Virus record (IMG/VR): IMGVR_UViG_3300045988_127337
Location: 1-31,589 of that record
Reading direction: 5' to 3' (one strand)
DNA length: 31,589 nt
Source of the DNA: a virus
Taxonomy: Duplodnaviria > Heunggongvirae > Uroviricota > Caudoviricetes
Shown here: positions 1 through 12,000 of the stretch, piece by piece
Numbering within the stretch: the stretch's first letter is position 1
Layout: each line of letters starts with the position of its first letter
Notes under the pieces: model-generated
Database searches by the model: none
Told to the model about the DNA's origin: nothing
Seen by the model: only the letters and a program-made list of their open reading frames with translations
Position numbers and translations under genes: made by a program

Positions 1-180
1 GGCTGGGACGGAAGTCGCTGTCGTTCTCAAAATCGGTGGAGCTGCATGACAAAGTCATCGGGCATTATCTGAACATAAAACACTATCAATAAGTTGGAGT
101 CATTACCCTGCACCGCGCTGAATTCTGGTAAAAAGAATCCCTCACCATCCGGCGATTATTGAGTAAATTACGTTTCCATA

Positions 181-200
181 AATGCCCCCGCAGGGGCATT
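181..200 (-). terminator. Putative intrinsic terminator hairpin downstream of the 214..1038 gene
   Basis: Palindrome aatgcccc-cgca-ggggcatt lies 14 bp past the minus-strand stop codon at 214..216. The following U-run is weak. Confidence 0.35.
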
Positions 201-213
201 TGCAGTAATGAAA

Positions 214-1038
214 TCAGGCGGTGAAAGTACCAATAAAGGTTTCTACTTTGCTGTCCTTGAATTTCTCAACAAGCAGATCACGAAATTCGTTAGCCATTTC
301 TTCCTGCACCGCCTCCAGCTGAATAATGCGTAGAACCAGTACAGGACGATCGCCAGTGATAATACTGAGGCGTAATTTAAACGGACGTTCTTTCAGACCT
401 TCAAACGGAACGCATTTAAATTCAAATGCCACTGGCATAATGTCTTTGGTCTTCGCTTCGACAGACTCCATCAGGGAGCGTTTGCCGCTGAAGTCATTAT
501 CTTCAAAATCAGCGGTCTGGTTTGCTTCAATCGTGATTTTACGGACAGCCGCAGCCGCTTTTGTTGCCTGAATAGCGTCACCATTAGCATCAAAGCCCAC
601 AAGATAGTCGGCCCAGTCTTCAATCCATTCTGCCAGTGACTTCTGGGAGTTACGCTCGCCGTTAACAGACAACAGAGCAGAGAACGGTGCTGTCTTTTTC
701 AGTTTGAGTGTGGCGGTGTTATCTGCGTGACCTGGTTCATCAATAGTACCCAGGTTAAGCACACTGACGGCACGCATATTATCAGCATCGATAAAGCAGC
801 GGGTGCCTTCATCTGCAAGATCTTTAGAATAACGGGTAAAGTCATCGATGCTGGCAGTGGAAAGCGCACCACGGAAACGGAAGCGATTTAAATTAAATTT
901 TTCCAGATCATGAATGCGGAAATTCTCAGGCAATGCCACAGCATCGGCACCAATCTTACTGATAATTTCATTAACACCCTGAGCAGAAATAAGGGCATGG
1001 ATTTGATTAATTGCGGTTGCGTCTAAGTTCTGAGACAT
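214..1038 (-). CDS. YfdQ-like (DUF2303-type) prophage protein, 274 aa
   Basis: Intact ORF starting [12 protein letters not shown] with a GAGGA Shine-Dalgarno 7 nt upstream. Size and N-terminus recalled as matching the CPS-53/KpLE1 YfdQ family; not verified by search. Confidence 0.75.
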
Positions 1039-1103
1039 AATAAGTCCTCACTATATAAAGATATTCAGTGATGAGATAAATAATCAGTTAATTAAAAACG
1101 ATA

Positions 1104-1466
1104 TTAACGACCTGCTGCGCGGAGTTTTCCGTCAGGTTCACCGGCAAGAGTCAGTAACTGTCCCTGGTCTTCCTGCAGAATAGTCAGGCGACCACCGCGA
1201 TTGACATACATCGGCGTTTCGGTGGTGTCTTCTTCGGAAATTTTCCCGCGGTTAGTCGGGCGAACATATGAGAGTTTGTGTTTGATTTTCACTCGGTTCT
1301 CATCAAACGGTTCGATTTCCAGGTTGAGCGAGACCTTACCTTTGGTTTTCGTGTTCATCACACCGGAAGCGACTTCACTGAGAACTGCGCCGATTTTGGT
1401 TTCAAATACGCCGCCGTCCAGCTCCCCGATAAATGCCTGCACATCAGTACTGCGTTCGCTAGCCAT
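1104..1466 (-). CDS. Hypothetical prophage protein, 120 aa (YfdP-like)
   Basis: ATG at 1466 is preceded by GAGGAG (revcomp of 1472..1477). The long upstream in-frame extension to 1784 is GC-rich and not protein-like. Sits directly upstream of the YfdQ-like gene on the same strand. Confidence 0.65.
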   Translation of the reverse strand: MASERSTDVQAFIGELDGGVFETKIGAVLSEVASGVMNTKTKGKVSLNLEIEPFDENRVKIKHKLSYVRPTNRGKISEEDTTETPMYVNRGGRLTILQEDQGQLLTLAGEPDGKLRAAGR

Positions 1467-1934
1467 TTTGCTGCTCCTCATCATATCGACCCTGCAAGGT
1501 CGGTTAGTTTCTCCACAAAACAGAGAAGAACACCTGCGGTGACTGCCGCCCGGATGGATTGGGTTATGAGCCCGTCGTCCGGTGATGCTCTTCTCTGTTT
1601 TGTAAAAAGGACGGTACCAGCCGGAAGCAAGGGTACAAGCTGGTACCGCCAAGACTACACACAGCATAAAGTTGTGGTGCCGGGTGCCTCCCGGTGCCTG
1701 GCGAAGGTTGCACACCAGGCGGGTGGGTATCCACAGAAGGTCGACTGTCAGCCTCAACCTTAACCCGCGTGCGCTGAGCCGCATTCACCACAACGCTAAG
1801 GATTCTCTCTGGTTGAAAATACTTAGCTGTTATGTGCCTGCTTTTAGCCACATCAGGCGAGGTGGACCTAGTTATTCCCCAACAACAAGGATTCGGTTAA
1901 TCTGGTTATCCCCAACAACGCAAAAGGAAAAGAA
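1467..1934. other. GC-rich structured non-coding block (candidate ncRNA or regulatory DNA)
   Basis: No protein-like ORF. Perfect 15-bp inverted repeat arms at 1515..1529 and 1589..1603; 9-bp inverted repeat GGTACCAGC/GCTGGTACC at 1613..1621 and 1639..1647; direct repeats GTTAT(T)CCCCAACAAC at 1871..1886 and 1905..1919. Confidence 0.4.
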
Positions 1935-2369
1935 ATGTCCGGTAATATCTATACGCTGTACAAATCCCACTGTGAAAATGTTGGAAAGTATCGGGGCATT
2001 GAAATCAGTGGGGTAGTGTCATCAGTCGAAATAAGCAAAGTTGAATCAAGGGCAACATTACTTACTCTTTTGGACCTTGTCTTACATGAGCACCGGAAGA
2101 AATTCGGCACTCCCTATAATCAGTTGAATGGGAAAAAGGCTCTGGTTCACCTTATTCTGATGAAGCATCACTGGATGCCAAAACAGATTAATGAGATGAA
2201 ATTTGATGAACTTCTTCTTTCAATTCAGGATGAACTCACACTTGATAAAATAAGCGTAACCGCCCAGAAATTTTTAGATTATCGAGACTGGAGATCACAA
2301 ATTCATCACTTTGATGATTTTGACGAAAATGAATGGGATCCTAATTTGTCTGCACAATATCTAAAGTAA
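1935..2369 (+). CDS. Hypothetical protein, 144 aa; AT-rich orphan (moron-like) gene
   Basis: ATG at 1935 with AAGGA Shine-Dalgarno 6 nt upstream. AT-rich by eye compared with neighbours. Oriented opposite to the early-left operon. No recognisable motif. Confidence 0.6.
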   Translation: MSGNIYTLYKSHCENVGKYRGIEISGVVSSVEISKVESRATLLTLLDLVLHEHRKKFGTPYNQLNGKKALVHLILMKHHWMPKQINEMKFDELLLSIQDELTLDKISVTAQKFLDYRDWRSQIHHFDDFDENEWDPNLSAQYLK

Positions 2370-2547
2370 CATCCTGTGATAAAACCGTGATTTCCTGATC
2401 CAGTTTTTTTAAGGAGTCTATTGTTTCCTGTCGATAAGACAGCACTTCACGAAGCTGGTTTATAGCTGCCAGCTTCTTTGTCATCCACTCATAAATTTCC
2501 TCATCTGTGTAGCCAGGCGCGACGATTTTGGGTTCTGTTTTGTGCAT
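2341..2547 (-). CDS. Hypothetical small protein, 68 aa, first gene after the PL-like promoter
   Basis: ATG at 2547 with GAGGAG 8 nt upstream; the listed ORF start at 2562 is a TTG. Its 3' end overlaps the 1935..2369 gene convergently by 29 bp. C-terminal half looks coiled-coil. Confidence 0.55.
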   Translation of the reverse strand: MHKTEPKIVAPGYTDEEIYEWMTKKLAAINQLREVLSYRQETIDSLKKLDQEITVLSQDVTLDIVQTN

Positions 2548-2591
2548 TTCACATCTCCTCAAGTTATCAGTTACTTGTTGATGGGGACCAG

Positions 2592-2624
2592 ATTGTTAAA
2601 GAGCTAAGCGTCCTGTAGGGCGCT
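2592..2624 (-). promoter_or_regulatory. Nut-like antitermination element: hairpin followed by rrn-type boxA
   Basis: Minus-strand RNA reads hairpin (2624..2607) then GCUCUUUAACAAU (2604..2592), a 13-nt match to the E. coli rrn boxA consensus as recalled. Lies in the leader between the PL-like promoter and the 68-aa gene. Confidence 0.5.
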
Positions 2625-2630
2625 TTTTTG
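2607..2630 (+). terminator. Intrinsic terminator (plus strand)
   Basis: Stem agcgtcc / gggcgct with loop tgta, followed by a T6 run at 2624..2629. Confidence 0.6.
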
Positions 2631-2714
2631 TTGCTAACGAATCATCCTGGACTTCATATGCCCCAGGCGGCTACTTCGTGGGCGTCCTGCCTGTTTGTTG
2701 TTTCTCTTGGGTAC

Positions 2715-2742
2715 ATTATGTATCTCATAGGTACATTGTCAA
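2715..2742 (-). promoter_or_regulatory. PL-like early-left promoter with embedded operator
   Basis: Minus strand -35 TTGACA (2742..2737), 16-bp spacer, -10 CATAAT (2720..2715). Spacer contains palindrome ATGTAC-N7-aTACAT (2718..2736), matching the OR operator architecture. Confidence 0.6.
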
Positions 2743-2746
2743 GTAT

Positions 2747-2767
2747 AAAAAAACCTGCCGAAGCAGG
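2747..2767 (-). terminator. Intrinsic terminator downstream of the repressor gene
   Basis: Minus-strand hairpin cctgc-ttcg-gcagg followed by a U7 run, 15 bp past the repressor stop codon. Confidence 0.7.
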
Positions 2768-2781
2768 TTCATAAACATTGA

Positions 2782-3456
2782 TTAGGCTTTGATTTTGTAT
2801 CTTCTTGGTTTTCCTGAGAAAATCACAGTTCCAATTATAGAGCAATTACCGTTGATCTTAATGTAAGGCTCAGGCCAGTTTGGGTTTAACGCTTTGAGAT
2901 AACGCTGTGTCCCATCTTCTATCAACCTTTTGAAGGTGGTTTCACCTGTATCGTGCATCAATGCAATAACGTCGTCACCGTGGCAGGCAGGTACTTCAGG
3001 ATCGACAAAAATCATGTCTCCCGGGCGGTACTCGTCAATCATTGAATCACCTATCACCCGCAAGATATAAGTCATTTCCCCACAGGGTACAGGGCAGGGA
3101 TACGTTTCTGCTGTGCTCAAATCAACCTCAGAATATCCAACTTCTTTCCATGCTCCGGCCTGTACCCATGATATGACAGGGACTAATGTGATTTGTTTAT
3201 TAGTGATTGAAACATCAGGTTTTTTTGTGATGTTCGTTGTCTGGTGTTCTTGATCGAGCCATCCGACAGGCAGGTCGAAACATTTTTCGATGTGTCGTGC
3301 CATGCTGTCACCGATATTTTTAGTAGCACCATCTCCCATAAACCTGCTGGTCTGGGTTGGCTCGCGATCAATCATAGTGGCAAAGGAAGAATTCCCGCCA
3401 ACACCATCTCTCAGTTTTCTGGCGTTAGACCGCCGGATGTCATGGATTGTTTTCAT
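2782..3456 (-). CDS. CI-type prophage repressor, N-terminal HTH plus C-terminal S24 (LexA-like) peptidase domain
   Basis: 224 aa. C-terminal region aligns by eye with P22 C2 (LNPNWPEPYIKINGNCSIIGTVI vs LNPQYPMIEINGNCKIIGVVV). Contains GDSM catalytic serine motif and an Ala-Gly cleavage site (VQAGAW). No Shine-Dalgarno, consistent with a leaderless PRM-type transcript. Confidence 0.85.
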   Translation of the reverse strand: MKTIHDIRRSNARKLRDGVGGNSSFATMIDREPTQTSRFMGDGATKNIGDSMARHIEKCFDLPVGWLDQEHQTTNITKKPDVSITNKQITLVPVISWVQAGAWKEVGYSEVDLSTAETYPCPVPCGEMTYILRVIGDSMIDEYRPGDMIFVDPEVPACHGDDVIALMHDTGETTFKRLIEDGTQRYLKALNPNWPEPYIKINGNCSIIGTVIFSGKPRRYKIKA

Positions 3457-3546
3457 AACGAAATTAAAACCCTTGTACCGTTAAGGTACAAGTATCTTGA
3501 AGGTTCATTTCAATCATGTAATATGTACACCGGAGGTACATATTGT
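3457..3546. promoter_or_regulatory. Divergent immunity-region promoter and operator segment (OR, PR, PRM)
   Basis: Palindromes CTTGTACCGTTAAGGTACAAG (3472..3492) and ATGTACACCGGAGGTACAT (3523..3541), both with a GTAC-N7-GTAC core. Plus-strand PR: -35 TTGAAG (3497..3502), 16-bp spacer, -10 TAATAT (3519..3524). Confidence 0.65.
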
Positions 3547-3747
3547 ATGAAAGCGTATTGGGACTCTTTAACCAAAGAACAGCAGGGCGAGTTGGCCGGA
3601 AAAGTTGGCTCAACACCTGGCTACTTACGGCTGGTTTTCAATGGCTATAAAAAAGCCAGTTTTGTGCTGGCTAAAAAACTTGAGCAATGCACGTCAGGTG
3701 CAATTACGAAATCTGACTTAAGACCGGATATCTATCCGAAAGATTAG
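3547..3747 (+). CDS. Cro-like HTH regulator, 66 aa
   Basis: ATG at 3547 with GGAGG upstream; divergent from the repressor. The YdaS-family assignment is from recalled sequence character only. An alternative ATG at 3523 lies inside the operator. Confidence 0.6.
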   Translation: MKAYWDSLTKEQQGELAGKVGSTPGYLRLVFNGYKKASFVLAKKLEQCTSGAITKSDLRPDIYPKD

Positions 3748-3778
3748 CAGAACACTTTCAATTTTTAACCACAGAACG

Positions 3779-4348
3779 ATGAGGCTAATCGTGGGTAAGC
3801 ATCACTGGAAAATAGAAAAACAGCCTGAGTGGTACGTGAAAGCTGTCAGAAAAACTATCGCGGCGTTGCCGGGTGGTTACGCTGAAGCGGCTGACTGGCT
3901 CGATGTAACAGAAAACGCTTTATTCAACCGCCTTCGTGCAGATGGCGATCAGATTTTCCCGCTGGGATGGGCAATGGTTTTACAGCGTGCTGGTGGCACT
4001 CACTTCATTGCTGATGCTGTGGCGCAGTCTGCAAATGGCGTCTTTGTGTCTCTTCCTGACGTCGAGGATGTGGACAACGCCGATATTAACCAGCGTCTGC
4101 TGGAAGTCATTGAACAGATCGGCAGTTATTCAAAACAGATTCGTTCAGCAATCGAAGACGGTGTAGTGGAACCGCATGAGAAGACAGCAATTAACGACGA
4201 GCTGTATCTCTCAATTTCGAAGCTGCAGGAGCATGCAGCACTTGTCTACAAAATTTTTTGCATTTCAGAAAGTAATGACGCCCGCGAGTGTGCAGCTCCG
4301 GGCGTCGTGGCGTCGATTGCTTCTGGTTGTGGAGAAACTAACGCATGA
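3779..4348 (+). CDS. CII-like or YdaT-like early regulatory protein, 189 aa
   Basis: Position immediately after cro in the early-right operon. Family assignment from memory only. The start could instead be the GTG at 3791, which has a GAGG upstream. Confidence 0.5.
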
Positions 4349-4683
4349 ACAGTTTAACAACACACTACCGTCGCTCGCAACTGATTGCGCTTCCTGTACC
4401 GGGTGGAAAAGCGAAGGTGGAATATTGCTATGCAGTGAATGTACCAGGTGACAGGGAAATTGTAACCCACAGCTTTGCAGAGTGGGCTGTGGGTGATTTC
4501 AACCGGCAGAAGGAGACGGTCCTTTGCGACAAGTTAACCGCTGGTTCAAAGATCACTACGGAGTGCCCGTCAGAGTCATTCGTTGGGAGCCGGAAACACA
4601 ACGGGTTATCTACCTCCGCGAAGGTTATGAGCATGAATGCTTCAGTCCGCTCGAACAGTTTCGTCGTAAATTCAGGGAAATAG
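4345..4683 (+). CDS. Hypothetical protein, 112 aa, probably disrupted by a frameshift
   Basis: ATG overlaps the upstream stop (ATGA). The first ~59 aa look protein-like; the C-terminal half is Ser-rich and low-complexity, while a different frame over the same DNA gives a better translation. Confidence 0.35.
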
Positions 4684-4703
4684 AGGTCGGTCATGAGCAC
4701 TAA
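4524..4703 (+). CDS. Alternative-frame small ORF (59 aa, TTG start) or frameshifted C-terminus of the 4345 gene
   Basis: Translation [56 protein letters not shown] is protein-like. AAGGAG at 4510..4515 sits 8 nt before the TTG at 4524. Confidence 0.3.
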
Positions 4704-5634
4704 ATTAACCGGCTATGTATGGGATGGTTGCGCTGCATCAGGCATGAAGTTATCCAGCGTGGCAATTATGGCCCGCCTGGCTGATTTCAGTAATGACGAA
4801 GGTGTGTGCTGGCCATCAATTGAAACCATTGCCCGTCAGATTGGCGCGGGGATGAGTACCGTCAGAACGGCTATCGCACGGCTGGAAGCAGAAGGCTGGT
4901 TAACGCGTAAGGCGCGTCGCCAGGGTAACCGCAATGCGTCGAATGTTTATCAGCTTAACGTTGCGAAGCTTCAGGCAGCGGCATTTTCTCAACTGTCAGA
5001 TTCTGACCCGTCAAAATCTGACGCATCAAAATCTGACCCGTCAAAATTTGATGCGTCGAAATCTGGCAAAAAAGCGGGTTTTCACCCGTCAGAATCTGGC
5101 GGGGATCCGTCAGTAAAATCAAAACATGATCCGTCAGATAAAAAACCTTCTCGTCCGGACGCTTCGCAACCGGACACGCAGACGGCTGAACAGGATTTTT
5201 TAACTCGCCATCCTGATGCGGTTGTATTCAGCCCTAAAAAGCGCCAGTGGGGGACGCAGGATGATTTGACCTGCGCACAGTGGCTCTGGAAAAAAATCAT
5301 CGCCCTGTACGAGCAGGCTGCCGAATGTGACGGCGAGGTGGTTCGTCCCAAAGAACCGAACTGGACAGCCTGGGCAAACGAAATTCGCCTGATGTGTGTA
5401 CAGGATGGCCGTACTCACAAACAAATCTGCGAGATGTACAGCCGCGTCAGCCGCGATCCGTTCTGGTGCCGTAACGTGCTCAGCCCGTCGAAGCTGCGGG
5501 AAAAATGGGATGAGCTTTCCCTGCGCTTATCGCCGTCCGTCAGCACGTACACCGAAAAACGCGAAGACCCGTACTTCAAAGCCAGTTACGACAACGTGGA
5601 CTACAGCCAGATCCCGGCAGGATTCAGGGGGTGA
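4693..5634 (+). CDS. Replication initiator, phage O-like (N-terminal winged-helix domain, repeat linker, C-terminal domain)
   Basis: 313 aa in the position of the replication gene after the cII-like gene. N-terminus is wHTH-like. The gene carries the tandem 15-bp iterons of a lambda-type origin. Confidence 0.6.
   Translation: MSTKLTGYVWDGCAASGMKLSSVAIMARLADFSNDEGVCWPSIETIARQIGAGMSTVRTAIARLEAEGWLTRKARRQGNRNASNVYQLNVAKLQAAAFSQLSDSDPSKSDASKSDPSKFDASKSGKKAGFHPSESGGDPSVKSKHDPSDKKPSRPDASQPDTQTAEQDFLTRHPDAVVFSPKKRQWGTQDDLTCAQWLWKKIIALYEQAAECDGEVVRPKEPNWTAWANEIRLMCVQDGRTHKQICEMYSRVSRDPFWCRNVLSPSKLREKWDELSLRLSPSVSTYTEKREDPYFKASYDNVDYSQIPAGFRG
4996..5103 (+). repeat. Origin-like iterons inside the replication gene (about six 15-bp repeats, consensus TCAAAATCTGACCCG)
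   Basis: Repeat units begin at 4996, 5011, 5026, 5041, 5056 and 5089, followed by an A/T-rich stretch (about 5104..5150). Confidence 0.6.
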
Positions 5635-5636
5635 GC

Positions 5637-6125
5637 ATGAGTCTTTTGAATGACGTTCAGAAATTCATTGAAGCCCATCCGGGGTGTACTTCCGGAGACA
5701 TTGCGGATGCTTTTGCAGGTTACTCACGGCAGCGCGTTCTGCAGTCAGCAAGCAAGTTACGTCAGAGTGGTCGTGTGGCTCACCGTTGTGAAGGGGATAC
5801 ATGCAGACATTTCCCGCGCCTGACTGAGAGAGCGCAGGAGGCGGAACCGCAACCAGTTCGTGAAACCAGACCTGTGCGCAATTTCTATGTCGGCACTAAC
5901 GACCCGCGGGAGATTTTGTGCCTGACCCGCCAGGCTGAAGAACTGGAGTCCAGGGGCTTATACCGTCGTGCTGCAACGGTGTGGATGGCGGCATTCCGTG
6001 AAAGCCATTCCCAGCCAGAACGAAACAATTTTCTGGCGCGTCGTGAGCAGTGTTTACGGAAAAGCAGCAAGCGCGCTGTATCGGGTGATGAGTGGTATCT
6101 GTCAGGGAATTACGTGGGGGCTTAA
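5637..6125 (+). CDS. Hypothetical regulator, 162 aa, with a PerC-like C-terminal motif
   Basis: ATG at 5637 just after the upstream stop. Motif GLYRRAATVWMAAF resembles the GLWRRAA signature of PerC/Pch activators as recalled. Low certainty. Confidence 0.4.
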   Translation: MSLLNDVQKFIEAHPGCTSGDIADAFAGYSRQRVLQSASKLRQSGRVAHRCEGDTCRHFPRLTERAQEAEPQPVRETRPVRNFYVGTNDPREILCLTRQAEELESRGLYRRAATVWMAAFRESHSQPERNNFLARREQCLRKSSKRAVSGDEWYLSGNYVGA

Positions 6126-6778
6126 TGAGTAATAAATATTGCCAGGAGCTGGTGGAACTGCGGAACAAACCAGCCCATGAACTGAAGGAAGTGGGCGATC
6201 AGTGGCGCACGCCGGATAACATTTTCTGGGGAATTAACACTCTGTTTGGTCCGTTTGTTCTGGATCTGTTCACTGACGGTGATAACGCCAAATGTGCCGC
6301 GTATTACACGGCGGAAGACAACGCGCTGGCGCATGACTGGTCAGAACGTCTTGCGGAGCTTAAAGGTGCTGCCTTTGGTAATCCCCCATACAGCCGCGCC
6401 AGTCAGCATGAGGGGCAATACATCACCGGCATGCGTTACATCATGAAGCATGCCAGTGCCATGCGTGATAAAGGCGGGCGCTATGTTTTCCTGATCAAAG
6501 CTGCCACCAGCGAAGTGTGGTGGCCGGAAGATGCAGATCATATTGCTTTTATTCGCGGGCGTATTGGTTTTGAACTGCCTGTCTGGTTTATCCCGAAAGA
6601 CGAGAAGCAGGTACCGACAGGCGCTTTCTTCGCTGGTGCTATTGCTGTTTTCGACAAGACCTGGAAAGGACCGGCAATCAGCTACATCGGGCGCGATGAA
6701 CTTGAGGCATGTGGTGAGGCCTTTCTGGCGCAGGTTCGCCAGCAGGCAGAAAAACTGGTCAGGGAGATGGCGGCATGA
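6125..6778 (+). CDS. Phage DNA N6-adenine methyltransferase (Dam-like)
   Basis: 217 aa with the NPPY catalytic motif (GNPPYSRA); start overlaps the upstream stop (TAATG). Confidence 0.75.
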   Translation: MSNKYCQELVELRNKPAHELKEVGDQWRTPDNIFWGINTLFGPFVLDLFTDGDNAKCAAYYTAEDNALAHDWSERLAELKGAAFGNPPYSRASQHEGQYITGMRYIMKHASAMRDKGGRYVFLIKAATSEVWWPEDADHIAFIRGRIGFELPVWFIPKDEKQVPTGAFFAGAIAVFDKTWKGPAISYIGRDELEACGEAFLAQVRQQAEKLVREMAA

Positions 6779-7101
6779 CGACGTTAACTCAATGCCAGCA
6801 GCAGGTGCTGGATATGCTGATTTCTTACCAGAAAGAGCGTGGCTTTCCGCCAACCAATCAGGAGGTGGCAACCATGCTGGGATACCGTTCAGTGAATGCA
6901 GCGGTAGAGCATCTTCGCGCACTGGAGAAAAAAGGCGTCATCACGATAAAGCGTGGCGTGGCCCGGGGGATAACGCTTCATACCGCGGTGAAGGACGACG
7001 ACAGCGAGGCGGTCGGGATTATCCGCGCACTGCTTGCCGGTGAGGAAAACGCCAGGCTGCGTGCAGCCCACTGGTTACATGAGAGGGGCATGAAAGTATG
7101 A
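6775..7101 (+). CDS. LexA DNA-binding-domain-only protein, 108 aa
   Basis: N-terminal ~70 aa align by eye with the LexA winged-helix domain (QQQVLDMLISYQKERGFPPTNQEVATMLGYRSVNAAVEHLRALEKKGVI). No S24 peptidase domain follows. Confidence 0.65.
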   Translation: MTTLTQCQQQVLDMLISYQKERGFPPTNQEVATMLGYRSVNAAVEHLRALEKKGVITIKRGVARGITLHTAVKDDDSEAVGIIRALLAGEENARLRAAHWLHERGMKV

Positions 7102-7487
7102 AGCTGATCTTGCCTTTCCCGCCCAGCGTGAACACGTACTGGCGACACCCCAACAAAGGGGCGTTTGCTGGTAAGAGTCTGATAAGCGCAGCGGGGCGCA
7201 AATTCCAGAGCGCGGCGTGCGCAGCAATAGTTGAGCAGTTACGTCGTCTGCCGAAACCAACGTCGGCACCTGCTTCAGTGGAGATCGTGTTGTTTCCTCC
7301 GGATAACCGGATCCGCGATCTGGACAACTATAACAAGGCGCTGTTTGACGCCCTGACCCACGCGGGTGTGTGGGAAGACGACAGTCAGGTGAAAAGAATG
7401 CTGGTGGAGTGGGGACCGGTTATCCCGAAAGGGAAGGTCGAGATCACTATCAGTAAGTACGAGAAAACGGCGGGTGCAGCCGCCTGA
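7098..7487 (+). CDS. rusA: RusA-family Holliday junction resolvase
   Basis: 129 aa. Motifs LPFPPSVNTYWRH and RDLDNYNKALFDALTHAGVWEDDSQV match E. coli RusA by eye. GAGAGGGG ribosome-binding site. Confidence 0.85.
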   Translation: MKLILPFPPSVNTYWRHPNKGAFAGKSLISAAGRKFQSAACAAIVEQLRRLPKPTSAPASVEIVLFPPDNRIRDLDNYNKALFDALTHAGVWEDDSQVKRMLVEWGPVIPKGKVEITISKYEKTAGAAA

Positions 7488-7506
7488 TCAAGAGGAGAAA
7501 CGAAGT

Positions 7507-8316
7507 ATGAATAATCTGATGGTCATTGATGGTATTGAAGTTCGTCGTGATGCTTATGGGCGTTACAGCCTGAACGATCTGCATCGCGCAGCAGTAGCAT
7601 CTGGTGCAAATGCCAGAACCAAGGAGCCGGGAAAGTTTCTTTCCAGCCAACAAACTGTTGAGCTTGTTCATGAATTGACCAACACCCAGAATTTGGGTGT
7701 TGACCCGGTGAGTGTGATTCATGGGGGAAATGAACGGGGAACTTATGTCTGCAAGGAACTGGTGTATGCCTATGCAATGTGGATCAGCCCGTCATTCCAT
7801 CTGAAGGTGATCCGTACTTTCGACATGGTAACCAGCGCACCGGAAAAATTATCCGGACAGGCTGCTGACAAGATGCAGGCTGGTGTGATTCTGCTGGACT
7901 TTATGCGTCGGGAGTTAAACCTGTCTAACTCATCTGTGCTTGGTGCCTGTCAGAAACTCCAGGAGGCTGTTGGCTTACCGAATCTGGCACCGCGCTATGC
8001 CATTGATGCTCCTGCTGATGCACACGATGGCTCAAGTCGCCCGACACTGTCACTGAGTGCACTGCTGAAACAGTATGGTATCCGCCTGACGGCTAATCAG
8101 GCATATCACCAGATGGCGAAGCTGGGGATCGTTGAACAACGCGAACGATACAGTCGTACCGCGATTAACAACATCAAAAAATTCTGGTCGCTGACAGCGA
8201 AAGGCTGCATGTTCGGCAAGAACATCACCAGTCCCGCAAATCCGCGCGAGACGCAGCCGCATTTCTTCGAATCCCGATTCCCTGAGCTGTTAAAGCTGCT
8301 CGATACCGTTCATTGA
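7507..8316 (+). CDS. KilA-N domain protein (antirepressor-like)
   Basis: ATG at 7507 with AGGAG upstream. N-terminus (VIDGIEVRRDAYGRYSLNDLHRAA) is typical of a KilA-N domain. Confidence 0.7.
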   Translation: MNNLMVIDGIEVRRDAYGRYSLNDLHRAAVASGANARTKEPGKFLSSQQTVELVHELTNTQNLGVDPVSVIHGGNERGTYVCKELVYAYAMWISPSFHLKVIRTFDMVTSAPEKLSGQAADKMQAGVILLDFMRRELNLSNSSVLGACQKLQEAVGLPNLAPRYAIDAPADAHDGSSRPTLSLSALLKQYGIRLTANQAYHQMAKLGIVEQRERYSRTAINNIKKFWSLTAKGCMFGKNITSPANPRETQPHFFESRFPELLKLLDTVH

Positions 8317-8317
8317 G

Positions 8318-9313
8318 GTGACCGTGAGAGCACTACTGACCCCTGAAATTGCCCCACGTATGGGGATCGTATTGTTCAGACCAGGTTCAGAGCTGATGCC
8401 CCTGTTTATGCAGGGGCGTGTCCTGCTGGAGCCTGAGCCGGAACGTTATTCATCTTTTGCCAGTGGTGCCGTTCCGGCGGCATCACAACCGCTGGCGGAT
8501 GATCCTGCCGTTCGGGCCGTGTTCCGCAATGAGACAGTGATCCGTCGTGCTGGTGGGGTGGAATGTCTTGAAAGCTGGTTACTTCGTGAAAAAGGCTGCC
8601 AGTGGCCTCATTCCGACTGGCACAGCGAGAACATGACCACAATGCGACACGCTCCGGGCGCAATCCGTCTGTGCTGGCACTGCGATAACCAGCTGCGCGA
8701 TCAGTTCACGGAACGGCTGGAATCAATGGCAACGGATAACTGTGCCCGCTGGATGTTGTCTGTTGTGCGTCGGGATCTCGGTTTTGATGATAGTCACGTT
8801 GTGACAATGCCGGAACTGTGCTGGTGGCTGATTCGTAATGACCTGGCGGATGCCTTACCGGAAAGTGCAGCCCGTAAGGCACTGAGATTACCAAAGCCTG
8901 TTGTGCCGTCTGTCACCCGGGAAAGTGACCTTGTGCCTTCGGTTCCTGCCACCAGCATCATCCAGGATAAGGCAAAAAAGGTGCTGGCGCTGAAAGTGGA
9001 TCCGGAGTCGCCGGAGTCTTTTATGTTACGCCCAAAACGTCGCCGCTGGGTTAATGAAAAGTACACGCGCTGGGTTAAGACACAGCCGTGTGCATGTTGT
9101 GGAAAGCCTGCTGATGATCCCCACCACCTGATAGGCCATGGTCAGGGTGGAATGGGTACAAAAGCGCATGACCTCTTTGTGTTGCCTTTGTGCAGAAAGC
9201 ATCACGACGAGCTGCATGCGGATACCGTGGCATTTGAAGAGAAGTATGGTTCCCAACTGGAGCTGATATTTCGTTTTATCGATCGTGCGCTGGCAATTGG
9301 CGTGCTGGCCTGA
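8318..9313 (+). CDS. DUF968-like phage protein with a C-terminal Cys/His (HNH-like) motif
   Basis: C-terminus CACCGKPADDPHHL...CRKHHDELH. Start uncertain: GTG at 8318 or GTG at 8324, the latter with GAGGTG upstream. Confidence 0.6.
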   Translation: MTVRALLTPEIAPRMGIVLFRPGSELMPLFMQGRVLLEPEPERYSSFASGAVPAASQPLADDPAVRAVFRNETVIRRAGGVECLESWLLREKGCQWPHSDWHSENMTTMRHAPGAIRLCWHCDNQLRDQFTERLESMATDNCARWMLSVVRRDLGFDDSHVVTMPELCWWLIRNDLADALPESAARKALRLPKPVVPSVTRESDLVPSVPATSIIQDKAKKVLALKVDPESPESFMLRPKRRRWVNEKYTRWVKTQPCACCGKPADDPHHLIGHGQGGMGTKAHDLFVLPLCRKHHDELHADTVAFEEKYGSQLELIFRFIDRALAIGVLA

Positions 9314-9331
9314 TTTTTTCGGAGAAAGTTG

Positions 9332-9718
9332 ATGCGTAATATACAGATGATCCTTGAACGTTGGGGGGCATGGGCAGCGAGTGATAGCTCAGGAGTTGAC
9401 TATTCGTCTATAGCTGCTGGGTTTAAGGGGCTTCTTCCATATACCAGAAAGACACGTCTAGCTTGTTCAGATAGTGATGCATTAATTATTGAAGGTAGCC
9501 TTGCTCTTCTTAAGAAGAGAAAACCGTACGAACATTCTTTGATTGTGGCTCATTACCTGTATGGCATCTCGAAAAGAAAGATCGCAAAGGCACGTAATAA
9601 AGACGAAAAATTGATACGTATCGAGATACAGGTTGCTGAAGGTTTTATCGATGGCTGCCTAAGTATGCTGGATGTGAAACTTGAAATGGATGACTACTCT
9701 GAGTCTCCTGTAGCATGA
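9332..9718 (+). CDS. Late-gene antiterminator Q (QuuD/phage-82 type)
   Basis: 128 aa. MRNIQMILERWGAWAA...SIAAGFKGL...LKKRKPYEHSLIVAHYLYG matches the recalled DLP12 QuuD sequence closely. ATG at 9332 with GGAG upstream; the listed start at 9329 is a TTG. Confidence 0.85.
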   Translation: MRNIQMILERWGAWAASDSSGVDYSSIAAGFKGLLPYTRKTRLACSDSDALIIEGSLALLKKRKPYEHSLIVAHYLYGISKRKIAKARNKDEKLIRIEIQVAEGFIDGCLSMLDVKLEMDDYSESPVA

Positions 9719-10329
9719 AATAATGAAACGACCATATGTCTTACATAATATGGTTGATTTGTAGCTGGATGCAATGTTGTACTCATGAATCGCAAGGGAT
9801 TATCCTCGTCGGTTGTAATTTTTGCATCAGCTACTTCCTGCTGAAGATGCTTTCGCCAGTCATCAAGTCTCTCGCCAGATTTCTTAATTTTACAGTAAAT
9901 GATAATGCCACCATGGTTGTCACGCGCAGTGCCAGTGCCATATCGCTCGTTGAGCTGGTTCCATCCACCTAAGATGTACGCAGGACCTTTCCATAATTTA
10001 GCTTCGCCAATCCATGCAAATCGGCCGAGCTGATGTTTAACTAATATATCTATATGCCCTCCATGCTGAGTGTCATGTTCAGCGTCATAATTACGGCCTT
10101 TCAAAAAAGCAATAATAACTGATGTGAGCTCATCTTCACCCCACTGCTGTGTTTGATACATATGTTTTTGGGTTTCCAAAACATACATCGCGTCATCAAG
10201 GTCAACGTAAAGTTGCTTCACGAAATCGTCGTGACTTGCTGCAAATTTTCGCTTAAGAAAACCAGACAATTCAGGGTCAAATTGACTTAAGGTGTCTAAT
10301 TGGGCAAGGTTGAAATTACATTCACTCAT
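9694..10329 (-). CDS. Hypothetical protein, 211 aa, with a PD-(D/E)xK-like nuclease motif; third gene of the antisense accessory operon
   Basis: Strong GGAGG Shine-Dalgarno. Start overlaps the upstream gene's stop by 8 nt (ATGAGTGA). Motif GHIDILV...(17 aa)...WIGEAKLW fits D...ExK. AT-rich by eye. 3' end overlaps the 3' end of Q by 25 bp. Confidence 0.65.
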   Translation of the reverse strand: MSECNFNLAQLDTLSQFDPELSGFLKRKFAASHDDFVKQLYVDLDDAMYVLETQKHMYQTQQWGEDELTSVIIAFLKGRNYDAEHDTQHGGHIDILVKHQLGRFAWIGEAKLWKGPAYILGGWNQLNERYGTGTARDNHGGIIIYCKIKKSGERLDDWRKHLQQEVADAKITTDEDNPLRFMSTTLHPATNQPYYVRHMVVSLFHATGDSE

Positions 10330-10744
10330 GTAATTCCTCCAAAGCCTCAGTAGGAGTGAAGTATGGGAACAAATAATGATTATAATTATCGACTAATTGA
10401 CCACTGTAAGGATGATAAAACTTACCTGTATGAAGCGCATGAGACACGTCATCATCATCGACGGGAATAGGATCACTATCGTCAGACTCGATATACTGGA
10501 AATGCATATCTAGCAAGTGCATTCTGTTGCTCGAAAGATAGTCAGTTACTTTGATCAGTAAAACTTTGGCATCGTTATTTTGCACATCAAGCTTAGTACC
10601 ATTAACCAAACTTACATATGTTATGTGTTTCAGTGACTTAGCTTCTTTGCTGGTTAAAAAATCAACCACAACACGACATAAATCTCCAACCGGCCCATGT
10701 AGGTCGTGGTTGATTTTCGAGTATATGTCGTGTTTAGTTAACAT
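10322..10744 (-). CDS. Hypothetical acidic protein, 140 aa; middle gene of the antisense accessory operon
   Basis: ATG at 10744, 10 nt after the upstream stop, with AAGAG upstream. AT-rich. No recognisable motif; Asp-rich patch DDSDPIPVDDDD. Confidence 0.6.
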   Translation of the reverse strand: MLTKHDIYSKINHDLHGPVGDLCRVVVDFLTSKEAKSLKHITYVSLVNGTKLDVQNNDAKVLLIKVTDYLSSNRMHLLDMHFQYIESDDSDPIPVDDDDVSHALHTGKFYHPYSGQLVDNYNHYLFPYFTPTEALEELHE

Positions 10745-10754
10745 AATCAACTCT

Positions 10755-11852
10755 TTATGCAGCCTCGTCAGTGGCTCGCTTTCTCTGTATGCTTGATAGT
10801 GACTCTAACATCTTGTTGATTACAAACAAAATATGCTCAATTGAGGAGCAACGATCTATGATTGCATCATAAAGGTGACTGTTCGGTTTATCAATCATAG
10901 CCCGTTTACCTGGCAGTATTAATTCTACAGGGAAAACTTGAGAAGCTGAATCAGTCAGATCCCAAATTTTACCGAGTTTGTATTTCGTTAGTATGGGACT
11001 TGCCTCTTCGCCCCCATGATGGTAGCTGTCTGAGCGCAAGCAGCTTTCACCCGGACGGAGTTTTAATGAGCTGGTGTTTCCATCTGATGTAAGAAATGAC
11101 ATCTGCGAGATTCTACCATCTGTTTGCTCGTACATTTCTTGTACTAATCCAAAGAGGTCAATGGGCGCAGGTAAAGTCAAACCAGTAGTAGTTCTAATAA
11201 ACTGATCAAGCAAAAATTGCTGTCGTTCCGACTCTGAACGAGGCATCACAGATAAATCAACAGTGAGCGCAAGTAAATGCAACTCGGGTAGAATCATTAT
11301 TGTATTAAAGCACTGTGTAACTTCACGTGTTTTACATTTGATTTCACCACCATTGGAGCGAAGAGCTAGCCCAGCATCGCTTAAATGGGTCGCGTCGAGT
11401 TCAATAGTTTCTGTGTAGTATGCTTTCGACGTAAGAATCGTTGTTTCTAAAGAAACTTTGTTTACGACAGAAAATGTAGTTTCTAAAAAATGAAGATCTG
11501 TATCAGCTGCAAGCAACACATCTTTAGGCAAAGGATATGGATAGCTTTCGCAAAAAACGGATTCGTCTCTTTCTAGGGCATTTATATTCTCCCGTAGAGT
11601 TTGCACTTCTTCCGGTTCTAACTTATACAGCTTAACTAAACGGGTCCCACTCAATAGTAAATTTTGCCATACTTCACCTATATGAGTACTTACAGCTTCC
11701 TGATCTACATCTTCTGTTGCTTGGAGCCTCGCGATAAATGGGTCAAGGCCAACTGATGTGACACCAAGTGGTTCCCCCACAATTTTTTTTGTGAGCTTCC
11801 ATCCAACACGTTCGGTGATATCTCTTAAAAGGTTGATCGTTTGCTCATTCAT
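10755..11852 (-). CDS. Hypothetical protein, 365 aa; first gene of the antisense accessory operon
   Basis: ATG at 11852 (MNEQTINLL); the listed start at 11894 is a TTG. AT-rich. No Walker, HEXXH or other catalytic motif seen by eye. Confidence 0.6.
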   Translation of the reverse strand: MNEQTINLLRDITERVGWKLTKKIVGEPLGVTSVGLDPFIARLQATEDVDQEAVSTHIGEVWQNLLLSGTRLVKLYKLEPEEVQTLRENINALERDESVFCESYPYPLPKDVLLAADTDLHFLETTFSVVNKVSLETTILTSKAYYTETIELDATHLSDAGLALRSNGGEIKCKTREVTQCFNTIMILPELHLLALTVDLSVMPRSESERQQFLLDQFIRTTTGLTLPAPIDLFGLVQEMYEQTDGRISQMSFLTSDGNTSSLKLRPGESCLRSDSYHHGGEEASPILTKYKLGKIWDLTDSASQVFPVELILPGKRAMIDKPNSHLYDAIIDRCSSIEHILFVINKMLESLSSIQRKRATDEAA

Positions 11853-12000
11853 AAGAAACCCTTTTTTGTATTTTTTTGTACTTTTTGAAGGCAATTTAGA
11901 TAGTCCTTAACATACTAAATTAACGAACATATTTCATTAGCACGGTCCGCAAAAAGTGATGTATCGTGTTAAGAGTGGTTACTTCGCCACACAACTTAAA

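Follow-up and report, generated by a model that had tools for sequence, protein, structure and literature searches.

The window analysed here, the whole of a 31,589-nucleotide stretch of DNA from a tailed-phage record (IMG/VR IMGVR_UViG_3300045988_127337), carries on its plus strand (positions 6775 to 7101) a gene whose 108-residue product is, judging by its sequence, a LexA-derived winged-helix DNA-binding domain followed by a short helical tail, and this gene is translationally coupled to rusA, which encodes the phage Holliday-junction resolvase. The reading that is tentatively favoured here, and that is far from assured, is that the protein serves as a RecA-insensitive DNA-binding partner of RusA and is not a regulator of the SOS response. 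What leads to this reading is the combination of a LexA fold without an S24 peptidase domain, selection on both parts of the protein, the gene overlaps, the adjacency of rusA, and the existence of covalent fusions of the two proteins, together with the fact that stand-alone LexA winged helices adjoin other nucleases of the nin region (NinG, DUF968/HNH). The features on which the argument turns are the following.

6775-7101 (+): LexA-type winged-helix gene, stop codon included (PF01726; PHROG 362; ratio of nonsynonymous to synonymous substitutions, dN/dS, 0.044)
6775-6984 (+): LexA winged helix-turn-helix, residues 1-70, three helices and a two-strand wing (1lea alignment, AlphaFold2 [AF2], Foldseek)
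6892-6930 (+): recognition helix, residues 40-52, VNAAVEHLRALEK (alignments, tally of position 44)
6985-7098 (+): family-specific C-terminal module, residues 71-108, an acidic linker and then helices 74-88 and 93-103 (AF2, conservation, dN/dS)
6762-6766 (+): Shine-Dalgarno-like GGGAG, 8 nucleotides before the ATG and within the 3'-terminal part of the methyltransferase gene (read from the sequence)
7098-7487 (+): rusA, a 129-residue Holliday-junction resolvase (PF05866, E=6.6e-15; PDB 1q8r, E=3.6e-18)

The open reading frame (ORF) begins with ATG and ends with TGA, and it overlaps its neighbours at both ends: an ATGA at 6775-6778 sets its start upon the stop codon of an upstream Dam-type methyltransferase gene, and a second ATGA at 7098-7101 sets its own stop codon upon the start of rusA, an overlap of 4 base pairs. 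The resolvase gene lies directly downstream in all 81 close viral loci and in all 80 loci of a subfamily whose members are 41-47% identical; within those loci RusA is 72-83% and the DUF968 protein 64-68% identical, and relatives variously keep, lack or have exchanged the methyltransferase, PerC and KilA-N neighbours. The two genes are likewise contiguous in 2202 of the 2222 E. coli genomes that carry the winged-helix gene (about 99%). A reciprocal check that started from the RusA proteins of Cronobacter, Atlantibacter and E. coli led back to an upstream PF01726 gene of 106-110 residues, with a 4-base-pair overlap, in 10 of the 10 places listed.

Within prophages of Kluyvera the association has become covalent, as a tail-less winged helix stands in frame with a complete RusA in ORFs of 208-212 residues (...RGVSRGISITQLKPKNTGAEG-MTLVLPFPPSVNTYWR...). 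Fusions of PF01726 with PF05866 make up 24 clusters at 90% identity (Kluyvera, Klebsiella sp.), with lengths of 202-212 residues and identities of 73-97%. Because the linkers are variable and the RusA half is strongly diverged in one case, and the fusion is nevertheless still in frame, the frame has survived both divergence and recombination. The fused winged helix occupies the same syntenic slot, and it is 68% identical to that of the window, compared with about 50% for E. coli LexA. In the AF2 model of the fusion two folded domains are joined by a disordered linker (residues 71-78, predicted local distance difference test [pLDDT] below 50; predicted template-modelling score 0.53), which is consistent with a tethered arrangement of winged helix and RusA. 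A third architecture, a winged helix with an unrelated C-terminal domain of about 85 residues (PHROGs 24920/29443), is found in the same slot upstream of rusA.

L176 5001-5627, L177 5001-5639 and L192 4-546: Kluyvera/Klebsiella fusion loci (proteins P0253-P0276)
L084 6001-6477 and L190 5001-5474: third-architecture loci (no Pfam match for the ~85-residue domain)

The coupling and fusion to RusA were not found reported in the literature searched and are the chief novelty of this analysis, a modest one. By its placement the protein falls into a class of winged-helix modules adjacent or fused to RusA, a grouping that is proposed here and is not an established family. If the protein is indeed a partner of RusA, the winged helix would supply binding to duplex DNA, and the tail would either dock on the RusA dimer or make a dimer of its own, so that a Holliday-junction resolvase would be tethered or restrained on replicating and recombining phage DNA. 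In Kluyvera and Klebsiella, where the tail is lost, the same effect could be achieved by the flexible 11-residue linker that joins the winged helix covalently to RusA.

The assignment of the fold is based on several independent comparisons. The Pfam model PF01726 (LexA_DNA_bind) matches residues 1-65 over positions 1-65 of its 65 (E=2.9e-19; 69 bits, with a cut-off of 23.7), and residues 2-70 align one-to-one with residues 2-70 of PDB 1lea, the N-terminal domain of E. coli LexA (E=6.5e-16); full LexA is likewise among the best matches to solved structures. An AF2 model derived from 20 family members (pLDDT 84) places helices at 6-22, 28-35 and 40-52, strands at 56-58 and 66-68, and extra helices at 74-88 and 93-103, and Foldseek superimposes residues 1-68 on 1lea/3jso with a root-mean-square deviation of 1.0-1.3 Å over 67-68 residues at about 50% identity. 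An earlier note, made from the letters alone, had described a phage-encoded protein with a LexA winged helix in its first ~70 residues and neither an S24 domain nor autocleavage, and had held out structure prediction as a check on the fold. The description is borne out by the PF01726 match and the 1lea alignment, by the absence of any Pfam match to PF00717 (S24 peptidase) in a protein that ends at residue 108, and by the position of the gene, which lies in the nin region of a lambdoid prophage resembling SfII, SfV and mEp460, and the predicted structure is that of LexA and not a different fold.

The protein is nonetheless not a LexA. It is without the S24 domain and without a conserved cleavage site, it scores 70.5 bits against the full-length LexA model TIGR00498, under the cut-off of 110.95, and SOS-box autoregulation is absent as well, since the overlapping genes leave it no promoter of its own and the 31.6 kb of the window hold no exact SOS box. 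DNA binding is probable, and insensitivity to RecA* is to be expected because there is neither a catalytic domain nor a conserved cleavage site. A marginal match of the protein to a CARF-related PADLOC model (E=3.6e-4) was dismissed as generic winged-helix similarity.

In place of the peptidase and dimerisation half of LexA the protein has 38 residues of its own, and these repay attention. An exhaustive HMMER protein search gave 4602 matches at E<=1e-3, most of them LexA, and 16 at E<=1e-30, and the proteins that match over the tail as well form a small set of 106-165 residues with 40-53% identity. In these relatives A97 and L101 are invariant and A93 is nearly so, and the hydrophobic positions of the tail are 82/83, 86/87 and 100/101. 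The C-terminus had been called short and unrelated in the earlier note; Foldseek indeed finds no structural match for it, but the tail is a conserved two-helix module, specific to this family and under purifying selection, a finding that is new here. Dimerisation or docking is proposed as its role, and the 108-residue protein probably acts as a dimer or in a complex by way of its tail. In a species-level genome collection, tail-bearing members are confined to the Enterobacteriaceae (Shigella, Citrobacter, Kosakonia, Enterobacter, Silvania), to which the named clusters of the first protein search add Salmonella and Hafnia; two short non-enteric contigs, from Actinomadura and Fredinandcohnia, also matched and were taken as contamination. 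Among other proteins encountered, P0133, P0134, P0148, P0151, P0152 and others (140-350 residues) have two tandem LexA winged helices, apparently without S24, and would be covalent 'dimers' of the DNA-binding domain.

The tail also bears on the proposal that the protein is a dominant-negative partner of LexA, or else a decoy or substrate of LexA or RecA*, whether by forming a heterodimer with LexA or by placing its 'LLAGE' in the LexA active site. The proposal draws on the HMMER alignment, which runs on to LexA residues 71-86 and sets an 'AG' opposite Ala84-Gly85, and the tail was accordingly considered as a retained LexA cleavage site. This was rejected: Citrobacter has AN and Salmonella VG in place of the 'AG', distant members lack it, and the segment lies in a predicted helix (pLDDT 86-88) and not in an extended strand-loop. 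Moreover, the dimer interface of LexA is its C-terminal domain, which is precisely what is missing here. The dominant-negative role suggested in the earlier note is thus not supported, and given the conservation data the whole idea is close to refuted and retains a very slight probability.

Selection has acted on both parts of the protein. Among 50 close alleles dN/dS is 0.044 (winged helix 0.007, tail 0.11), and among 70 alleles of the sister subfamily it is 0.21, equal in both halves (tail 0.20); low values in both subfamilies, therefore, mark a real gene and not a relic. That the gene is a functionless, decaying remnant of a captured host lexA could be argued from a few E. coli alleles with internal in-frame deletions (70-80 residues) and from a deletion fusion with rusA in P0331. 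However, the selection extends to the tail, 2222 E. coli genomes have an intact copy, conservation extends over seven or more enterobacterial genera and to inducible phages, and identity to E. coli LexA of about 50% does not allow a recent capture. On the selection and conservation data the remnant explanation is refuted. The damaged alleles themselves, which are in-frame internally deleted or a deletion fusion, come from E. coli P0075, P0087, P0103 and P0331; the deletion in P0331 joins the winged-helix gene to a 5'-truncated rusA in a protein of 199 residues, and the gene is evidently decaying in some cryptic E. coli prophages.

The next question concerns the DNA that the winged helix would recognise. 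In LexA the base-contact residues are S39, N41, A42, E44 and E45 (PMC3091678, PMC13416735). Four of the five are retained in the window protein, namely S39 (codon 6889-6891, just before the helix), N41, A42 and E45, and E44 is replaced by V. This replacement is systematic. Position 44 is V, A, T, F, L or Y in 12 of 12 diverged tail-bearing relatives and V in all seven of the close members that cover the position. Among the other LexA-like matches Glu stands there in 60 of the 77 short and 15 of the 24 long ones; it is found in none of the tail-bearing members. Several of the latter have likewise lost E45, and from subfamily to subfamily residues 42-45 read AAVE, TIAG, GAFE, AAAE, AATD, AVLL or TVFI. 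Across the family the DNA-binding residues S39, K53, R64 and G65 are invariant, and N41 and I66 are invariant or nearly so. Since the base-contact Glu44 is systematically replaced, the canonical SOS box is, as far as alignments can tell, an unlikely common target; the systematic loss of Glu44 is a further modest novelty.

This bears directly on the possibility that the protein is a non-cleavable SOS 'super-repressor', which would occupy the CTGT-N8-ACAG sites of the host after cleavage of LexA and re-silence the SOS regulon, or the genes of rival prophages or colicins. Its identity of ~50% to E. coli LexA's DNA-binding domain, the deviation of 1.0 Å, the conservation of four of five base contacts and of the wing residues R64-G65-I66, and the expectation that a protein without S24 would survive RecA* all speak for it, and the isolated N-terminal fragment of LexA keeps weak operator binding. 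On the other side, no member of the family retains Glu44 and several have lost E45 as well; the spacing of half-sites is set in LexA by the C-terminal dimer and by wing contacts, and both dimer module and geometry differ here; recognition helices differ by subfamily while the hosts share one enterobacterial SOS box; and the phage itself is without an SOS box. The super-repressor is for these reasons considered improbable. Binding to LexA-type sites, as the earlier note had it, is thus weakened: most of the contacts are retained, but E44 has become V in a family that never has Glu there. The link to SOS control that the note drew from it is weakly supported, as the linkage and fusion to rusA, which the note does not mention, point away from such control. 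Its remark that no SOS box was seen nearby holds for the entire window, where a motif scan finds no exact CTGT-N8-ACAG and 15 one-mismatch matches with 11.3 expected.

Searches for other operators were similarly negative. Palindromes of CTGT and ACAG, in both orientations and with spacers of 0-14, are not enriched in the window, and an apparent excess of CTG/CAG proved to be codon usage. The inverted repeats found within positions 1-12000 are only these:

167-214: stem-loop-like repeat
3514-3550: CI operator
9466-9493 and 10904-10937: imperfect palindromes (71-75%) within coding sequence

Among ~180 related loci of five subfamilies, the perfect 6+6 palindromes that stand out in non-coding DNA are terminators and immunity operators only, a weak negative given the crude coding mask, and no candidate for a late-promoter palindrome of the type bound by gp6, a tectivirus protein, was seen in the Q-holin interval or elsewhere, a computational absence that is weak evidence.

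These searches matter most for a close rival explanation, little less probable than the partnership, namely that the protein is an autonomous transcription factor like gp6, whose tail would form a homodimer and which would repress or activate a promoter in lytic growth from a phage or host operator that has diverged from the SOS box, the position of rusA being conserved gene order. The precedent is gp6 of GIL01, a LexA homologue in truncated form, which recognises a new palindrome overlapping the -35 of the late promoter and activates that promoter (PMC6182141), and the family as catalogued in PHROG 362 bears the label 'transcriptional repressor'. In addition, S39, N41, A42 and E45 are kept and positions 42-45 diversify in the way that specificity determinants do, a dN/dS of 0.007 for the winged helix within the subfamily amounts to extreme purifying selection, a few phages that lack rusA still have the gene, and the three C-terminal modules (two-helix tail, ~85-residue domain and RusA) could all merely dimerise. 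The difficulty is that such a factor has no candidate operator, since no CTGT-type palindrome is enriched at spacings of 0-14 and the ~180 related loci share no conserved non-coding palindrome besides terminators and CI operators; that within the operon there is no intergenic DNA for it to regulate; and that a permanent fusion to a nuclease, held across 24 clusters, would be unusual for a transcription factor.

A partnership with RusA must in turn be weighed against a number of points that count the other way. Synteny extends over the entire block of winged helix, RusA, DUF968 and Q, in the most distant members too, and the adjacency of rusA may therefore be inherited gene order and not functional coupling. 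In a Kosakonia prophage, a prophage in an Enterobacter metagenome-assembled genome and Klebsiella phage ST846-OXA48phi9.1 the winged-helix gene is followed by DUF968 without rusA, and in two distant members a 67-residue ORF or a reverse-strand gene is inserted between the winged-helix gene and rusA. Homologues of RusA, such as that of E. coli K-12, resolve junctions alone in vitro, so that catalysis needs no partner, and helix-turn-helix domains are known to fuse promiscuously. As RusA is a dimer, the fusion would be equally well explained if the tail did no more than dimerise a transcription factor, and the base-contact residues, which diversify between subfamilies, look like those of a sequence-specific regulator. 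The type of tail and the C-terminal type of RusA show no clean co-variation, although parsing was partly unreliable and this comparison was not used as evidence.

Other nin regions place similar proteins beside other nucleases. In Proteus phage vB_BPM-V3 (L266 2378-2857) a 159-residue LexA winged helix with a NinF motif overlaps the start of NinG; in Edwardsiella phage EPP-1 (L265 2495-2710) a tail-less winged helix of 71 residues overlaps the start of DUF968/HNH, with rusA two genes off; and in Klebsiella phage ST846-OXA48phi9.1 (L264 694-969) the winged helix is followed by a 67-residue ORF and then by DUF968. The DUF968 protein of the window (8318-9313, +), which has an HNH-like C-terminus and belongs to the YdfU family, is present in every related locus examined, including those that are rusA-less, and might serve the winged-helix protein as a functional partner instead of RusA or in addition to it. 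The recurring theme of a LexA winged helix beside a recombination nuclease of the nin region could reflect function or simply nin-region geography. A broader view, in which the stand-alone LexA winged helices of lambdoid phages are DNA-targeting adaptor subunits for phage recombination nucleases, is unlikely on present showing. The partners would be RusA, reached through the two-helix tail and covalently in Kluyvera, and possibly DUF968/HNH and NinG elsewhere. Were it true, structure-specific resolvases would become tethered or site-directed enzymes, a previously unrecognised two-component Holliday-junction resolvase would have come to light, and there would be a general rationale for nin DNA-binding proteins derived from host regulators, including lambda NinH by NinG.

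The gene is not a new object. The 108-residue protein matches PHROG 362 with E=1.9e-59, its residues 1-108, and thus the tail as well, covering all of the profile's positions 1-106, and it is the same gene as SfII_44 and SfV orf42, which GenBank names 'LexA DNA binding domain protein' and 'unknown', respectively; RefSeq offers 'LexA family transcriptional regulator' (WP_000210154) and 'LexA DNA-binding domain protein'. The protein is 95-100% identical in SfII, SfV, mEp460, phage cdtI and the Shiga toxin (Stx) 2a- and 2c-converting phages, and its slot in those phages is the same, with a methyltransferase or PerC gene on one side and rusA on the other. The 5 kb around the gene have counterparts with 97-98% identity in Shigella phages SfII and SfIV, coliphage mEp460, several induced E. 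coli phages and Stx2 phages. Of 5426 complete E. coli genomes, 2233 (about 41%) contain the gene at >=95% identity. A survey of Stx phages lists it without comment as pham 237 (PMC8136144), and full-text literature searches for a functional study of the family found catalogue mentions only. The names in the databases are homology labels, and one of them, 'SOS-response repressor and protease LexA', is wrong because there is no protease domain.

The window as a whole is a lambdoid prophage of the SfII/SfV/mEp460 kind with a late region of myovirus type, and the genes that surround the winged-helix gene are these:

2782-3456 (-): CI repressor with S24 peptidase domain (PF00717, E=1.5e-26; 'LexA family protein' or CI in relatives)
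3547-3747 (+): Cro-like gene
3779-4348 (+): CII-like gene
4693-9718 (+): delayed-early nin-type operon, from O to Q (ORFs, Pfam, RefSeq/GenBank annotation of near-identical prophages)
4693-5634 (+): O-like replication protein
5631-6125 (+): PerC-like protein
6125-6778 (+): Dam-type N6-adenine methyltransferase (PF05869, E=9.7e-46)
7507-8316 (+): KilA-N protein
8318-9313 (+): DUF968/HNH protein
9329-9718 (+): antiterminator Q

Each gene from O to Q touches or overlaps the next and there is no space for internal promoters, and the lysis and morphogenesis genes come after the Q region. As a member of this compact rightward operon, placed after the replication genes and ahead of Q, the winged-helix gene is probably expressed in the delayed-early phase and without a promoter of its own. 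The RecA-sensitive switch of the phage is its own CI and not the winged-helix protein.

A few side observations concern these neighbours. The mechanical ORF of the methyltransferase starts with GTG at 6092 (6092-6778, +) and overlaps the PerC-like gene, and the start annotated in relatives is the ATG at 6125, directly after the PerC-like stop codon (6123-6125). Inverted repeats centred on GTAC, of which GTACCgttaaGGTAC and TCATGTAATATGTAC...GTACATATTGTATGA are examples, occur at 3475-3550 and ~2700-2750, on the flanks of the cI/cro interval and again to the left of cI; presumably they represent OR and OL, the operators of this immunity type. Between Q and the holin lies a reverse-strand cassette (9694-11894, -) of three genes (211, 142 and 379 residues) that belong to PHROGs 9664, 11490 and 12777, of unknown function. 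Its proteins have no Pfam match and a weak match to PADLOC PDC-S54 (E=6.9e-6), and the cassette looks like a moron or a candidate module for defence or lysogenic conversion; SfII carries a different cassette, of two genes, at the same site.

What the protein does is of some consequence, as ~41% of complete E. coli genomes carry the gene, and so do Stx2a/Stx2c, cdt and Shigella serotype-converting phages. Should it silence the SOS regulon, prophage cross-induction, toxin release and mutagenesis would be affected, which is unlikely by the present analysis. Should it be a partner of RusA, the view of how phage Holliday-junction resolution is targeted would change, and the recurrence of small DNA-binding proteins derived from host regulators in nin regions would be explained. 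As database names for this gene, 'SOS-response repressor and protease LexA' and 'transcriptional repressor' are unsupported, and 'LexA-type winged-helix DNA-binding protein, function unknown' is to be read in their place.

Among known systems, E. coli LexA itself (1LEA, 1JHH, 3JSO; TIGR00498) has in common with the window protein the fold of residues 1-70, with ~50% identity in register, most of the base contacts and the wing residues. Unlike LexA, the window protein is without the S24 domain, Ser119/Lys156 and a conserved Ala-Gly site; it has Glu44 replaced and a two-helix tail where LexA has the hinge and C-terminal domain; and its own gene has no upstream SOS box. The BFVD collection holds many viral models of 65-152 residues, from Mycobacterium phage Wildcat, the Tectiviridae and uncultured Caudovirales among others, with the same fold and no S24; these are 25-41% identical to the window protein, and the listed matches do not cover the tail. 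LexA winged helices that stand alone are thus common among viruses.

A conceptual parallel is offered by NinH of phage lambda, a dimeric, Fis-like DNA-binding protein of the nin region whose binding and bending of DNA have been shown experimentally and whose role is not established (PMC7166090). Like the window protein, it is a small nin product drawn from the DNA-binding part of a global DNA-binding protein of the host, although the folds are unrelated, a Fis-type helix-turn-helix in the one and a LexA winged helix in the other. On the lambda map the gene presumably adjoins that of a recombination nuclease, ninG/rap, and no fusion of NinH to a nuclease is known.

A precedent for a phage-encoded LexA DNA-binding domain without S24 is gp6 of the Bacillus thuringiensis tectivirus GIL01, a truncated LexA homologue that activates the late promoter P3 (PMC6182141). 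The window protein is a phage-encoded truncated LexA homologue too, and gp6 is the one characterised example of the kind. No tectivirus is found among the 63 phage records matched by tblastn at E<=1e-3. Compared by published description, the two proteins differ in host phylum and in phage type, and for gp6 an operator and an activator role have been demonstrated. The published homology model of gp6 is a winged helix only, whereas the window protein adds a helical tail of 38 residues, and the genomic signal of its gene points to RusA.

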